Position numbers and translations under genes: made by a program
The notes under the pieces: generated by a model
The model's input: the letters and a program-made list of their open reading frames with translations, nothing else
Database searches by the model: none
What the model was told of the DNA's origin: nothing
Shown: one piece after another, positions 2,661-6,756 of the stretch
Numbering within the stretch: the first letter of the stretch is position 1
Layout of the letters: each line of letters opens with the position of its first letter
Source: an uncultured Saprospiraceae bacterium
GTDB taxonomy: Bacteria; Bacteroidota; Bacteroidia; Chitinophagales; Saprospiraceae
Direction: 5' to 3'
Length of the DNA stretch: 12,273 nucleotides
Assembly: GCA_964509175.1 (NCBI GenBank)
Contig: CAZDWO010000095.1
Span: forward strand, 1 to 12,273

Positions 2661-2679
2661 TACGCATCATTTTTGCGTA
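2661..2679. promoter_or_regulatory. candidate operator palindrome TACGCA-N7-TGCGTA upstream of the permuted tRNA-like ncRNA, followed on the minus strand by a TAnnTTTG -7 box (2651->2644, TATGTTTG)
   Basis: The 21-mer cTACGCAtcatttTGCGTAg is nearly identical to gTACGCAgttatttTGCGTAg at 6711-6731 in the rtcB/WYL intergenic region. Confidence 0.45.
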
Positions 2680-2701
2680 GTTATAATTTAATTCAAAATT
2701 G

Positions 2702-2775
2702 TGTGCCCTATTGGAGTCGAACCAATATCTTCTTCTTTATGAGAGAAGTGCTTTAACCGGTTAAGCTAAAGGCTC
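2702..2775 (-). tRNA. tRNA-Met/Ile2(CAT)-like
   Basis: The minus-strand read GAGCCTT TA GCTT-AACCGGTTA-AAGC A CTTCT-CTCATAA-AGAAG AAGAT ATTGG-TTCGACT-CCAAT AGGGCAC A is a good cloverleaf with anticodon CAT. There is one A.A mismatch at 2:71 and one G.U in the acceptor. No CCA is encoded. Confidence 0.45.
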
Positions 2776-2782
2776 AATTTTT

Positions 2783-2836
2783 ATACCCAACCCTAGCCCT
2801 TCCCTTGGCCAAGCTAGCGAAGAAAGGGATGGGTAT
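2783..2836. repeat. 54-bp palindromic mini-element (ATACCCAaCCC ... GGGATGGGTAT termini, internal cccttggccaag)
   Basis: Near-perfect 11-bp terminal inverted repeats. The inner inverted repeat TAGC/GCTA and the core CCCTTGGCCAAG are shared with the larger element at 3771-3925. Confidence 0.4.
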
Positions 2837-2838
2837 AG

Positions 2839-2970
2839 TAGGAATAGCAAGATTCGAACTCTCATCTTCTGGGTAGAAACCGCTTCCCATCACTTCGTGT
2901 TCCTTCTCTTGAATGTCTACTAGACATTCATACCTGCGGTAATCGTTCAGTCATGTTGAACTATATTCCT
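2839..2970 (-). ncRNA. 132-nt tRNA-like RNA with ~80-nt structured insertion in place of the anticodon arm (or insertion-disrupted tRNA pseudogene)
   Basis: Minus strand. Perfect 7-bp acceptor AGGAATA/TATTCCT, UA, D-arm GTTC-AACATGACT-GAAC, and T-arm GAGAG-TTCGAAT-CTTGC. No 5-bp/7-nt anticodon arm is present. In its place is an 8-9-bp palindromic hairpin (GAATGTCTA..TAGACATTC, 2911-2929), the long-range pair ACCGC/GCGGT, and a short variable-arm-like hairpin TTTCT-ACCC-AGAAG. Confidence 0.35.
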
Positions 2971-2981
2971 AATTAAAAACA

Positions 2982-3055
2982 GGGTGACCTCGAGACTCGA
3001 ACTCTGTTCTTCCCCGTCACAAGGAGATGTTTTACACACATAAACTAAAGTCACC
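2982..3055 (-). tRNA. tRNA-His(GTG)-like (weak T-stem; possibly degenerate)
   Basis: Minus strand. Acceptor GGTGACT/GGTCACC (7 bp) with discriminator C. D-stem GTTT/AAAC. Anticodon arm TCTCC-TTGTGAC-GGGGA (anticodon GTG). The T-loop TTCGAGT is present but the T-stem CAGAG/CTCGA pairs over only 3 bp, and the register between acceptor and D-stem is off by one nucleotide. Confidence 0.35.
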
Positions 3056-3071
3056 ATAATGGTCAGCAGTC

Positions 3072-3650
3072 TTATACTGCCAACCTAACTATCCTATTCT
3101 TAGATTTTGATTTAAAAGCCTTTGACTTAGTTTTAATTCTTTTTAGATCCGCTTCTATTTTATGGATCATGTAAGGATTAATACTTAGTGTTTTGACTTT
3201 TTTCAAAATCGTCTTTGCTTGTTTAAATTCACCTTTATACTCATGTATGTATGCCTGATGACTTAGAAGGATGGTTGCATCCATTCCTCTTACTCGTAAA
3301 CCATACTGGATAAGCTTCTGAGCTTGCTCATAATTACCTAACCAGATATTTAAAAGACTTGCATGTTTATAGGTATCGATATAATTAAGATCACCTTGTA
3401 GAGCTACTGTAAAACTCGCTAGAGCCTTTTGGTAATCTTTTAAGTGATACATATATATGAGTCCTTGCAAACAATTTGCAGGAGCATGCTCATCATCGTA
3501 ACTTAAAGCATAATTCAAATTTTCAACAACAAATTCTAAGTTGTACGGATAGTAATCTTTTGCTTTCAGATAATACTGATCGCCGATAGATAAGTCCATT
3601 TTTAAAAATTTATAATTAATCAATAAATATTGAGATGAGTCTTTACCCAT
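3072..3650 (-). CDS. tetratricopeptide-repeat (TPR) protein
   Basis: 192-aa ORF made of repeated ~34-aa units with Y/L/A periodicity (..YYLKAKDYYPYNLEF.. ..YQKALASFTVALQGDLNY.. ..YEQAQKLIQYGL..). The inverted repeat TGAGATG/CATCTCA (3634-3657) overlaps the start codon. Confidence 0.55.
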   Translation of the reverse strand: MGKDSSQYLLINYKFLKMDLSIGDQYYLKAKDYYPYNLEFVVENLNYALSYDDEHAPANCLQGLIYMYHLKDYQKALASFTVALQGDLNYIDTYKHASLLNIWLGNYEQAQKLIQYGLRVRGMDATILLSHQAYIHEYKGEFKQAKTILKKVKTLSINPYMIHKIEADLKRIKTKSKAFKSKSKNRIVRLAV

Positions 3651-4506: not shown

Positions 4507-4536
4507 ATCTATGTTATTTACTTTTGGCTATGAGCC

Positions 4537-4570
4537 AAAAAAAAAGCACCACTCTGATTACGGAGCAGTG
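4537..4570 (-). terminator. intrinsic terminator (minus strand; bidirectional-looking)
   Basis: On the minus strand GCACUGCUCCGUAAUCAGAGUGGUGC is followed by nine Us (reverse complement of the A9 run at 4537-4545). On the plus strand the same stem is followed by TTTTT (4572-4576). Confidence 0.5.
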
Positions 4571-4999
4571 CTTTTTACTAGAGAGATGATTTAAAAAAAT
4601 CATTCTATCTGTATATAACTTCTCTGTGTATCTACATAACTCGGCTCTTGCAGTCGATCTATTCTATGATCCTGCTCCTGATTTATCCCCCAGAATGTCG
4701 GTAATACGTATGTGTAATTATTTTTCATTTCTATTTTACTTTATGTTGCTTCTCTACAACAGATTCCATTTGTTTTGGAGACGCAAATGTAAACACAAAG
4801 TTTTCCAAAAACCAAATTTATTATTTATTTAATTTACTGATTATCAATTAGTTATGATCGTTTTAGACATAGAGTGGCCTGTCCACTTTTAGTAGATATC
4901 TTGCATTTTTTCCAATAGTCTGTCTCCCAATGGTTTATCTATCAATGCTTATTTTTTACTTCTTCTTATTTACTATTCATATTTCTAAAAATTATTTCT

Positions 5000-5036
5000 A
5001 AAAAAAAAGCGTCCAAAAATAAATCTGGACGCTTAT
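5000..5036 (-). terminator. intrinsic terminator downstream of rtcB
   Basis: On the minus strand AGCGUCCA-gauuuauuuu-UGGACGCU (8-bp stem) is followed by U9 (the A9 run at 5000-5008). It lies ~265 bp after the rtcB stop codon. Confidence 0.55.
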
Positions 5037-5239
5037 GCTTTATACTTATATGTTTTCTATTCTAATTACTACATATACATCTATGGCAATAGCATCCCTG
5101 ATCGCTCAGTTGCTCTATAAAATCAGATACTCGATCTGACCTTTTGGGTAAATTAATATGTATTGACAATTTCATAATCAGTACAAAGGTAATACAGTAA
5201 TCAATATCTAATCAAGTTTTTATTACAAATCTAGTCTTG

Positions 5240-5288
5240 CCGAAACTGATGTTTCGGTTCACAAACTTTTGATTGACATTTAGTCAAT
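5240..5288. repeat. bipartite two-hairpin repeat, copy b
   Basis: CCGAAAC-tgat-GTTTCGG ttcacaaacttttg ATTGAC-attta-GTCAAT. It starts 10 bp after the rtcB stop codon. Direct repeat of 3807-3855. Confidence 0.45.
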
Positions 5289-5298
5289 CAAATCCCGA

Positions 5299-6672
5299 CT
5301 ATCGTCTGGACCGTTTGTTCTTTCGCCAAGGAGCATCTATCTGCCAGTCTCCTGCCATGATACATCCGTATGGTAAGATCTTATCTACTACCTCTCCTAG
5401 TCCGAACTCTTCCATCTGGTCTTGTACGTTCTGAGCATTTTTATAGGCTGATGGCAATTCAGAAATATCGATATGGCCTGAGAAAAAACGGGCATCTATA
5501 CCTGCTGTCTCTTCCATAAATATTTCTGTAATGGTTTTGCCTACTTTCTTTCTGATATGAGCAGTACGACTGATGTCTCGACCAGCACCGTGAGGTGCAA
5601 AACCTAAATTGTTTTCTGTCGTCTCTCCTTTTACCACTAGGATCGGCTCACTCATATTTAATGGAACTAAACGTAAGCCATCTTTAGAATCTGGAACGAA
5701 ACGATCATCGAGTGGTGTAGCACCCTTGGCATGATAGAACTCATCTCCATCTTTAAAGACAAAGTTGTGCTCGTTCCAGAAACGATCGTGTACGTCAGAC
5801 TGCAATTGCATCGCAGTAGCATTATGCAAGACCTCATGGTTTAGTTTAGTCCAGGCTCTTACAATCTGTAAGGCTTCCCAATACTCTTGTCCTTGAGGAT
5901 GTGAGTATGGCAACCATGCATTGTTTTTCATCGTTTTTGGAGAATGCTCTTTTCTGAATTTCTCAGCAGCTTGCATTCCTTGACGATATAGATTGGCTCC
6001 GAAGCCTCGACTTCCGTGATGCGTTACCATTATGGTTTCTCCAGTATCTTCTGATCGACCTACATATAAAAAGTGGTTTCCATCGCCTTGAGTTCCGAGA
6101 TGAGTTTTGGCCAAGGTTTGACTACGTTTACTTTTTAAATAATAGTTGCCTTTTATTTTATCTAATAGTTCTTCTGGTAAATCAAAGTGATCATCTCGAC
6201 CTCCTCCTCCGAAGTGAGTAATGCTCTGAGCCTTATCCAGTACTTCTTTAGGATCCACCTGACCAAATGAAGTCATCATTACAGAGCAACAAACATCTGC
6301 ACTGTGCATGGCTGGGTGGATTGCATCTTTGGTGACAACCACACCTCCCACCGGAATCTGACCAGGAGCACCTGTCGGACAGGCATCTGGCATCACTGCT
6401 CCTCCTATAATGGTCGGAGTTTTCATCAGTGGAATCATCGTGTTTTTTACCGATTCTACATTAGACTCTTCTTCAGAATTTTCTGCTCTGATGTTTAGAT
6501 GATACGGAACAGGCTCTGTATGCGGATCTATAATCTGCGGAGCTCGCTCGTCTAAAAACGTTTTTAGTTGATCTCCTACTAGTCTTTGAGCATTGGCAGT
6601 TATGAGGGCTTCTTTAAACCATTTGCCCTGACGATAACCCATTTCGATTAAATCTTTTCCTGTGATTTTCAT
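5299..6672 (-). CDS. rtcB: RtcB-family RNA ligase (3'-phosphate/2',3'-cyclic-phosphate to 5'-OH ligase), divergent, with ~85-aa N-terminal extension
   Basis: 457-aa ORF. Motifs seen: MPDACPTG..VCCSVM (metal-binding Asp/Cys region), GDGNHF (Asn-His pair), THHGSRGFG (HxGSRG), and APHGAGR (guanylylated-His motif). The first-site His is replaced by Cys (PDAC instead of PDxH). The N-terminal ~85 aa has no counterpart in E. coli RtcB. Confidence 0.8.
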   Translation of the reverse strand: MKITGKDLIEMGYRQGKWFKEALITANAQRLVGDQLKTFLDERAPQIIDPHTEPVPYHLNIRAENSEEESNVESVKNTMIPLMKTPTIIGGAVMPDACPTGAPGQIPVGGVVVTKDAIHPAMHSADVCCSVMMTSFGQVDPKEVLDKAQSITHFGGGGRDDHFDLPEELLDKIKGNYYLKSKRSQTLAKTHLGTQGDGNHFLYVGRSEDTGETIMVTHHGSRGFGANLYRQGMQAAEKFRKEHSPKTMKNNAWLPYSHPQGQEYWEALQIVRAWTKLNHEVLHNATAMQLQSDVHDRFWNEHNFVFKDGDEFYHAKGATPLDDRFVPDSKDGLRLVPLNMSEPILVVKGETTENNLGFAPHGAGRDISRTAHIRKKVGKTITEIFMEETAGIDARFFSGHIDISELPSAYKNAQNVQDQMEEFGLGEVVDKILPYGCIMAGDWQIDAPWRKNKRSRR

Positions 6673-6711
6673 TTCTTTTTTATTAAGTACACTACAAAGA
6701 TGAGTTAGTAG

Positions 6712-6730
6712 TACGCAGTTATTTTGCGTA
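6712..6730. promoter_or_regulatory. candidate operator palindrome TACGCA-N7-TGCGTA in the rtcB/WYL divergent intergenic region, overlapping the -7 box TAGTTTTG (6729-6736) of the WYL gene
   Basis: Perfect 6-bp arms with a 7-bp AT-rich spacer. The motif is duplicated at 2661-2679. A second small palindrome GGGTTtAACCC lies at 6736-6746, just downstream. Confidence 0.5.
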
Positions 6731-6756
6731 GTTTTGGGTTTAACCCAAAATCAAAT

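Follow-up and report, generated by a model that had tools for sequence, protein, structure and literature searches.

To our knowledge, the sensing of RNA damage by bacteria is understood in detail only for RtcR of the enterobacteria. In Salmonella (rsr-yrlBA-rtcBA) and E. coli (rtcBA) this CARF-AAA+ sigma-54 enhancer-binding protein is encoded divergently from rtcB and senses tRNA fragments; RtcB shares its regulation with Ro60 and tRNA-like Y RNAs (PMC7790460). On the side of DNA damage, DriD of Caulobacter crescentus is a homodimeric activator of winged helix-turn-helix (wHTH)-3HB-WYL-WCX architecture which serves an SOS-independent response. Its box, ATACGAC-N7-GTCGTAT with an AT-rich centre (PMC10853764), overlaps the -35 position of promoters that have no -35 consensus, with a constant spacing to the -10 element, and RNA polymerase is recruited once the WYL domain holds single-stranded DNA (ssDNA) (PMC10853764; PMC13004042). 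Here we examine a stretch of 12,273 bases from an uncultured Saprospiraceae bacterium (contig CAZDWO010000095.1, hereafter the window), in which an rtcB gene lies divergently beside the gene of a wHTH-WYL-WCX regulator and in which one palindrome, TACGCA-N7-TGCGTA, stands both between these two genes and ahead of a distant tRNA-mimic non-coding RNA (ncRNA). The palindrome is very probably the operator of the adjacent DriD-like WYL activator and would define an RNA-repair regulon of the Bacteroidota.

The likeness of this locus to the DriD system extends from the domain architecture of the regulator, whose best fold and sequence match is DriD, to the operators, which share a TACG...CGTA palindromic frame, the N7 spacing and an AT-rich centre. 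In both systems a site lies over the -35 position, a site lies upstream of the regulator's own gene and several promoters are found per genome. However, the two proteins are only ~ 15% identical, the inner half-site is CGCA in the Bacteroidota instead of CGAC, and the promoters are of the Bacteroidetes -7/-33 type and not of the alphaproteobacterial sigma-73 type. Furthermore, RNA repair and tRNA-like RNAs take the place of the DNA repair and cell-division genes of DriD, and the ligand, which is ssDNA for DriD, is proposed by analogy to be RNA here. With the RtcR systems the locus would share a ligand-sensing regulator divergent from rtcB as well as the joint control of RtcB with Ro60 and tRNA-like RNAs. 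It differs from them in that a WYL/wHTH protein at sigma-A-type promoters replaces the sigma-54 activator and in that single promoters are scattered rather than gathered in one operon. Indeed, no RtcR was found among the window's open reading frames (ORFs) of at least 100 amino acids, the divergent neighbour of rtcB being the WYL protein.

The palindrome and its promoter geometry across the Bacteroidota

A preliminary description of this DNA had reported identical palindromes at the WYL/rtcB promoter and upstream of the ncRNA. Exactly two exact copies are indeed present in the window, at 2661-2679 (TACGCATCATTTTTGCGTA) and 6712-6730 (TACGCAGTTATTTTGCGTA), where dinucleotide-preserving shuffles give an expectation of 0.01 and two or more sites occurred in none of 200 shuffles. 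No third copy of TACGCA-N7-TGCGTA was found in the window with one mismatch allowed, and the extended consensus at three mismatches gave a single further match there, which is at chance level. The proximal operator (6712-6730) lies in the rtcB-WYL intergenic region, 45 nucleotides (nt) upstream of the WYL start codon. The distal operator (2661-2679) lies between a tRNA-Met gene, 21 nt away, and the ncRNA. The spacers of both sites are AT-rich, and T-rich on the plus strand.

Since the window is the whole of a 12-kb contig, the motif was counted in the flanks of other genomes, using 80 loci from Bacteroidota which carry a homologue of the WYL gene (1.31 Mb in all; numbers such as L081 name these loci). 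The chance level was taken from first-order Markov simulations, and the WYL-downstream half of the flanks served as an internal control. The relatives of the WYL protein are 55-82% identical throughout the phylum and include those of Saprospiraceae, Kordia, Flavobacterium, Aquimarina, Flammeovirga, Crocinitomicaceae and Proteiniphilum/Petrimonas. In the 80 loci the motif was found 101 times, 32 times exactly and 69 times with one mismatch, against ~ 0.2 and ~ 1 in the simulations. The motif stands beside the WYL gene in about 76 of the 80 loci, and most of the loci that have no copy with at most one mismatch show a two-mismatch variant, for example TGCGCA...TGCGCA, in the same place. Moreover, 98 sites fall in 595 kb of WYL-upstream DNA compared to 3 in 634 kb of WYL-downstream DNA, and 60 sites are found within 1 kb of the WYL gene, usually 44-59 nt ahead of its start codon.

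Both sites of the window are kept in L081 (74% identity), which has the same Band_7 neighbour and is the nearest relative for which enough flanking DNA is available. One site lies between rtcB and the WYL gene and the other after a tRNA and before a homologue of the ncRNA. The placement of the distal operator between a tRNA and the ncRNA homologue is also seen in L010 and L053. With the motif enriched well above chance and both sites syntenic in L081, neither of two outcomes that the preliminary description had held to speak against its proposal, namely a motif frequent by chance or sites not conserved in syntenic loci, was found.

The alignment of 103 sites, read away from the WYL gene, gives the consensus AC-TACGCAAAAtnATTGCGyA-gT, with TRCGCAAAAtnATTGCGYA as the motif itself. 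The arms of 6 bp and the AT-rich spacer of 7 bp given in the preliminary description are exact for the window, but the family is better described by arms of 7 bp (TRCGCAA and TTGCGYA) around an A-rich centre of 5 nt. This centre is oriented, and 101 of the 103 sites point in a single direction. Positions 2 and 18, which face each other in the arms, vary independently (G/T 45, A/T 34, A/C 16 and G/C 7), and the conservation is therefore at the level of DNA and not that of an RNA stem.

Sigma-A promoters of Bacteroidetes carry, ~ 19 nt ahead of the -7 box, a -33 element of the sequence TTTG. A -7 box, scored as TAnnTTTG with at least 5 of 6 positions matching and the TTTG intact, ends 17 nt past the motif at 72 sites and 18 nt past it at 15, hence at 87 of the 103 sites in all, and points away from the WYL gene; in the WYL-ward direction only a weak peak is seen, with 11 sites at 23 nt. 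The operator spans about -22 to -40 of these promoters. No separate -33 TTTG is conserved across the 103 aligned sites, and the operator, with CAAA in its consensus, fills that position. The TTG of the right arm was considered as a -33 element and rejected, since only ~ 13 nt would then separate it from the -7 box, too few by the spacing given above.

In the window, the -7 box of the ncRNA, TATGTTTG (2644-2651, minus strand), ends 17 nt past the distal operator, with a predicted transcription start near 2639. The same geometry is repeated at the proximal operator by a -7-type box of rtcB, cATCTTTG (6695-6702, minus strand), which was absent from the preliminary description and also ends 17 nt past the motif, with a predicted start near 6690. 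Of the two -7 boxes named earlier, that of the ncRNA thus follows the geometry of the whole family. The one assigned to the WYL gene, TAGTTTTG (6729-6736, plus strand), is present in the window, where its first two bases are shared with the end of the proximal motif, but no more than 2 of 60 relatives have a perfect box at this offset, and it was rejected as a conserved feature; on the WYL side, a -7-like box at 15 nt from the operator is commoner (27 of the 60). The conserved promoter of the proximal site is that of rtcB on the minus strand. The WYL gene may plausibly be autoregulated, but since the WYL-side box recurs in 2 of the 60 relatives only, the geometry of such control is not conserved.

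Genes and RNAs behind the probable operator

The window's rtcB (5299-6672, minus strand) encodes an RNA 3'-phosphate ligase of a divergent subfamily (Pfam RtcB, E 4.6e-34, residues 181-438). The identities that the preliminary description gave to the neighbours of the palindromes, RtcB, the WYL protein and a tRNA-like RNA, were all borne out by Pfam, ARAGORN/Rfam and the sequence. In the 80 loci, 57 sites have rtcB as the first gene past the motif. At others this place is taken by genes of an RlaP nucleotidyltransferase (PF10127, 5 sites), an RNA ligase of the T4 Rnl1 type (5 sites), Ro60 (TROVE and vWA, 2 sites), an RNase_T exonuclease (1 site), a PNKP-type HAD phosphatase (1 site) and a few unknowns. 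A scan of metagenomes with the exact consensus gave 125 sites, 94 of them with a -7 box in register. These sites precede rtcB (30), tRNA-like RNAs (about 30) and genes of PNKP phosphatase, RlaP, Ro60 and Rnl, and also those of Hen1 (PF12623, E 1.7e-97), of a metallophosphoesterase and of a second WYL paralogue. As the downstream genes make up the known bacterial RNA-repair toolbox, the cassette of operator and -7 box appears to define an RNA-repair regulon, which is much larger than the WYL gene, rtcB and the ncRNA named in the preliminary description. The idea that these three belong to one regulon is supported by comparative sequence evidence, since the motif is conserved beside the WYL gene, both sites are syntenic in L081, homologues of the ncRNA follow the motif and the geometry is that of the DriD box.

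Ro60 is nearby in 3 of the 80 loci, all of Flavobacterium, and in loci of this genus its gene comes after the operator. RtcA and a Ro60/TROVE protein were not found in the window, and TROVE is also missing from most of the related loci.

The RNA behind the distal operator is ~ 415 nt long (2225-2639, minus strand, both ends approximate) and is supported by homologues and by a minimum free energy z-score of -3.77. Its core (2279-2431, minus strand) consists of two tandem modules of the YrlA type followed by an anticodon-like hairpin, and a 5' domain of ~ 200 nt belongs to it as well. Each module has the permuted order T-arm, closed acceptor-like hairpin and D-arm, as in YrlA (RF02553), with which the RNA also shares a genomic link to RtcB-type repair. 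The sole ORF in the region (2010-2357) overlaps the tRNA-like sequence and is unsupported. Homologues found with nhmmer stand directly behind the motif in eight other loci (L010, L030, L050, L053, L060, L065, L072 and L081). In two of them, L065 and L072 (Petrimonas and Proteiniphilum), rtcB is missing, and it is the ncRNA that lies divergently to the WYL gene on the other side of the operator.

The Rfam YrlA model gave 36.1 bits for the window RNA and 37-43 bits for four homologues, below its gathering score of 69, with an alignment that covers the T-arm, the hairpin and the D-arm of the window RNA. RNAalifold on the eight homologues gave 30 base pairs, 21 of them with compensatory changes, and supports both modules. 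A covariance model of the core scored 138.6 bits in the window and 97-142 bits in nine other loci, those listed above and L073. Weaker matches of this model (20-56 bits) were left uncounted, as they are confounded by tandem tRNAs, an artefact of which Chen et al. 2014 have warned; for the RNA described here the closed hairpins rule this artefact out. The RNA differs from YrlA in its score, in its two tandem modules and in its long 5' domain. Furthermore, the Ro60-binding outer stem was not recognised, being deleted in the YrlA alignment of the window RNA, and the window has no Ro60 gene close by. Since Ro60 is nearby in only three loci, the ncRNA is YrlA-like in design and is not established as a Ro-bound Y RNA.

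Several observations were made on the genes and RNAs that follow the operator elsewhere. A second class of operator-driven RNA, referred to as class B, has a tRNA-like frame of D-arm...T-arm that is interrupted by 4-7 repeats of GGUCAA-N6-10-UUACUUC. It was seen in L035 (6288), L044 (4264), L064 (8888/8976) and L070 (7454) and in many metagenome loci (among them L207, L215 and L258). The GGUCAA repeats may be Ro-binding modules, because the copy of L070 directly follows Ro60. In Flavobacterium-like loci, operator and -7 cassette are doubled in tandem ahead of the class-B RNA, ~ 87-88 nt apart (L064 8888 and 8976; L258 2458 and 2545; L261 11759 and 11846). A scan of viral contigs with a 14-base core gave mostly chance matches or unrelated coding repeats, and only those of L187, L190 and L198, three IMG/VR contigs, look genuine. 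In these, an operator with -7 box precedes a class-B tRNA-like RNA (L187 768, L198 9734 and L190 3010). In L187 and L198 the RNA is directly followed by what resembles by eye the gene start of a Bacteroides-type tyrosine integrase; the class-B RNA may there be the attachment site of a mobile element, with a candidate integrase behind it.

In the metagenome locus L263 (1303), a second WYL-domain protein of 370 amino acids comes right after the operator. This arrangement, found in two metagenome contigs in all, suggests that regulators may act in a cascade or that the sensors have paralogues. The rtcB leaders of Flavobacteriaceae, where operator and rtcB start are 100-125 nt apart, hold a conserved GC-rich hairpin of the GUGCUCCGU...ACGGAGCUU type with AAUCAUAAA ahead of it (L027, L049, L051, L059, L071, L078 and L079), possibly a small RNA or an element of the leader. 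In the window RtcB itself, residues 1-95 (6388-6672) form a conserved N-terminal extension, MKITGKDLIEMGY.QGKWF..., which lies outside the Pfam RtcB model and has no Pfam match of its own.

The WYL regulator and the proposed mode of control

The gene of the regulator (6757-7776, plus strand) encodes a protein of wHTH-WYL-WCX, DriD-like architecture (Pfam WYL, E 5.4e-11; WCX, E 1e-12). Sequence searches of the PDB also place DriD chains first (E 2e-3 when the single sequence is used, 2e-7 when a profile is). An AlphaFold2 (AF2) model with a mean pLDDT of 78 and a pTM of 0.47 was searched with Foldseek, and the top matches are full-length DriD chains (E 2.5e-15, 340 columns, TM about 0.5), a fold in which a bundle of helices ties the N-terminal wHTH to the WYL domain. 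PafBC ranks lower, followed by the shorter repressors CapW and BrxR. All of these are ligand-gated stress or defence regulators within the wHTH-WYL-WCX family. However, the mycobacterial activator PafBC is a heterodimer with a non-palindromic site, and CapW and BrxR, repressors of defence systems, each control a single adjacent operon. By eye, K50-R51-T52...L55 of the protein can be set against R36-R37-T38...R41 of DriD, a mapping that is a lead only.

Taken together with the operator, these likenesses suggest the following mechanism. A WYL dimer would bind the two 7-bp arms around the oriented A-rich centre of 5 nt, placed over about -22 to -40 of sigma-A promoters that have a -7 box and no separate -33 element. 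The WYL domain would take up a nucleic-acid signal, for which damaged or single-stranded RNA is proposed, and the signal-bound factor would recruit RNA polymerase from the -35 position in the fashion of DriD. In the window, the proximal copy would drive rtcB and divergently touch the factor's own gene, and the distal copy would drive the ~ 415-nt RNA with its two YrlA-type tRNA-like modules. Elsewhere in the Bacteroidota, the same cassette would drive RtcB, RlaP, the T4-type RNA ligase, the PNKP phosphatase, Hen1, Ro60, the exonuclease and tRNA-like RNAs. Given the content of the regulon and the analogy with RtcR, damaged or single-stranded RNA appears the most likely signal.

A number of points weigh against this mechanism. 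Three of its steps are inferred: binding of the operator by the WYL protein, activation instead of repression, and RNA as the ligand. The WYL factors whose ligands were found in the literature sense ssDNA, and in one case c-di-GMP. Many WYL regulators, CapW and BrxR among them, act as repressors, and a protein bound over the -35 region could also block the polymerase. The N-terminal wHTH gave no alignment to DriD by PDB sequence search or profile search, and the wHTH assignment therefore rests on the AF2 model, which is of moderate confidence. As for the promoters, the missing -33 element is judged by the published promoter consensus of Bacteroides, and the WYL-side promoter is not conserved among relatives. 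Finally, the motif count for the source organism is confined to the 12 kb of the window.

The main alternative keeps the same protein and the same operator but supposes a repressor like CapW or BrxR, which would cover the -35 region of the rtcB and ncRNA promoters, and in the window also the -7 box of its own gene, until it is released by a ligand of the WYL domain. Repressors with an equal domain set do exist and are among the fold matches, an operator inside the core promoter fits occlusion, and the window operator does overlap TAGTTTTG on the WYL strand. However, the full-length fold is closest to the activators DriD and PafBC, of ~ 330 amino acids with a helical linker, whereas the repressors are of ~ 290 amino acids and score lower. 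The rigid phasing of 17-18 nt in one orientation (87 of 103) and the lack of an independent -33 element suit recruitment and exceed what occlusion needs, and DriD promoters share this layout. Repression is for these reasons considered unlikely. The fixed distance between motif and -7 box also resembles a sigma element, and the motif could be read by an alternative sigma factor which takes TTGCGYA as a -35-like element, or by another transcription factor, with the WYL protein as a mere neighbour. But both arms, the promoter-distal and the proximal, are equally conserved, which indicates dyad symmetry and thus a dimer. Moreover, the WYL gene is the only constant neighbour, as several loci, L065 and L072 among them, keep the motif and the WYL gene though they have no rtcB, and the geometry of the site fits the box of DriD, the nearest characterised homologue; recognition by another factor is very improbable.

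Even less weight, close to none, is given to the reading of the palindromes as hairpins in RNA, such as intrinsic terminators or processing signals (for example at the end of the tRNA-Met transcript), or as copies of a small non-regulatory repeat. A simple terminator scan does flag both sites on the plus strand, and the distal one lies 21 nt after tRNA-Met. Yet the T-run is on the plus strand, where no gene ends, the arms show no compensatory change, with mismatched A/C and G/C pairs being common, and the centre is conserved and oriented. The sites are in addition coupled to -7 boxes and confined to the WYL-upstream side, and the hairpin reading was rejected on account of the missing covariation, the T-run on the wrong strand and this coupling. 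DriD-like activation by the WYL protein is thus retained as the preferred reading.

A further step is put forward more tentatively, with chances that we place somewhat short of even: the regulon may be a phylum-wide response to RNA damage, run by the first RNA-sensing WYL factor, a DriD-type protein for which RNA in broken or single-stranded form, for instance tRNA fragments, would be the signal. If so, RtcB, Pnkp/Hen1, Rnl/RlaP and Ro60 would be switched on together with dedicated tRNA-mimic RNAs of several modules, which could act as substrates, decoys, scaffolds or feedback ligands. Such a response would stand to RNA damage as the DriD pathway stands to DNA damage, and it would be analogous to RtcR while having evolved independently.

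A literature search found no WYL factor that controls rtcB, Ro60 or Y-like RNAs in Bacteroidota, nor this motif; an earlier mention of the adjacency of WYL and rtcB genes is possible. The components are of known kinds, namely DriD-type WYL activators, repair systems with RtcB, Hen1 and Ro60, and YrlA-like RNAs. What appears new is their combination, an RNA-repair regulon under a WYL factor that comes with tRNA-mimic RNAs of its own and a promoter cassette of the Bacteroidetes type. For an entire phylum, gut and marine Bacteroidota included, a precise cis-element is thereby given together with a candidate for the sensor, and the regulon (so far RtcB, Hen1/Pnkp, Rnl, RlaP, Ro60 and tRNA-like RNAs) can be read directly from genomes. 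The reach of WYL regulators would extend from the control of DNA damage and phage defence to RNA repair, and the poorly understood tRNA-mimic RNAs would be linked to RtcB, beyond Ro60 alone. The cassette could also serve as a portable, probably inducible promoter for Bacteroidota.

Other features of the window

Between rtcB and the distal operator lies an array of five tRNA genes, Asp, Glu, Gln, His and Met, with unclassified tRNA-like pieces and repeats (2701-4506, minus strand; ARAGORN and Rfam), which forms the context of the locus. The order Asp(GTC)-Glu(TTC)-Gln(TTG)...His after rtcB recurs in several Saprospiraceae (L081 6654-7889, L083 74-728 and L010 1954-4567). Between the tRNA genes, a hairpin-rich direct repeat of 90 nt with 82% identity (3985-4074 and 4275-4364) has no Rfam match and no ORF. 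A T-arm-like fragment of the GAGTTCGAATCT type is present in two copies beside a conserved TCCCTTGGCCAAGG hairpin (2801-2870 and 3890-3973). ARAGORN and Rfam make no tRNA call for either copy, and these fragments may be degenerate or split tRNA-like RNAs.

A repeat of 54 nt with 78% identity and two small hairpins (3807-3860 and 5240-5293) occurs immediately behind the rtcB stop codon and once more 1.4 kb further on, and may be a terminator or a processing signal. Finally, a perfect TAccTTTG -7 box with no operator was seen at 5183-5192 on the minus strand, ~ 110 nt past the rtcB stop codon, followed by an ORF of 37 codons and then by a strong terminator at 5034-5007.

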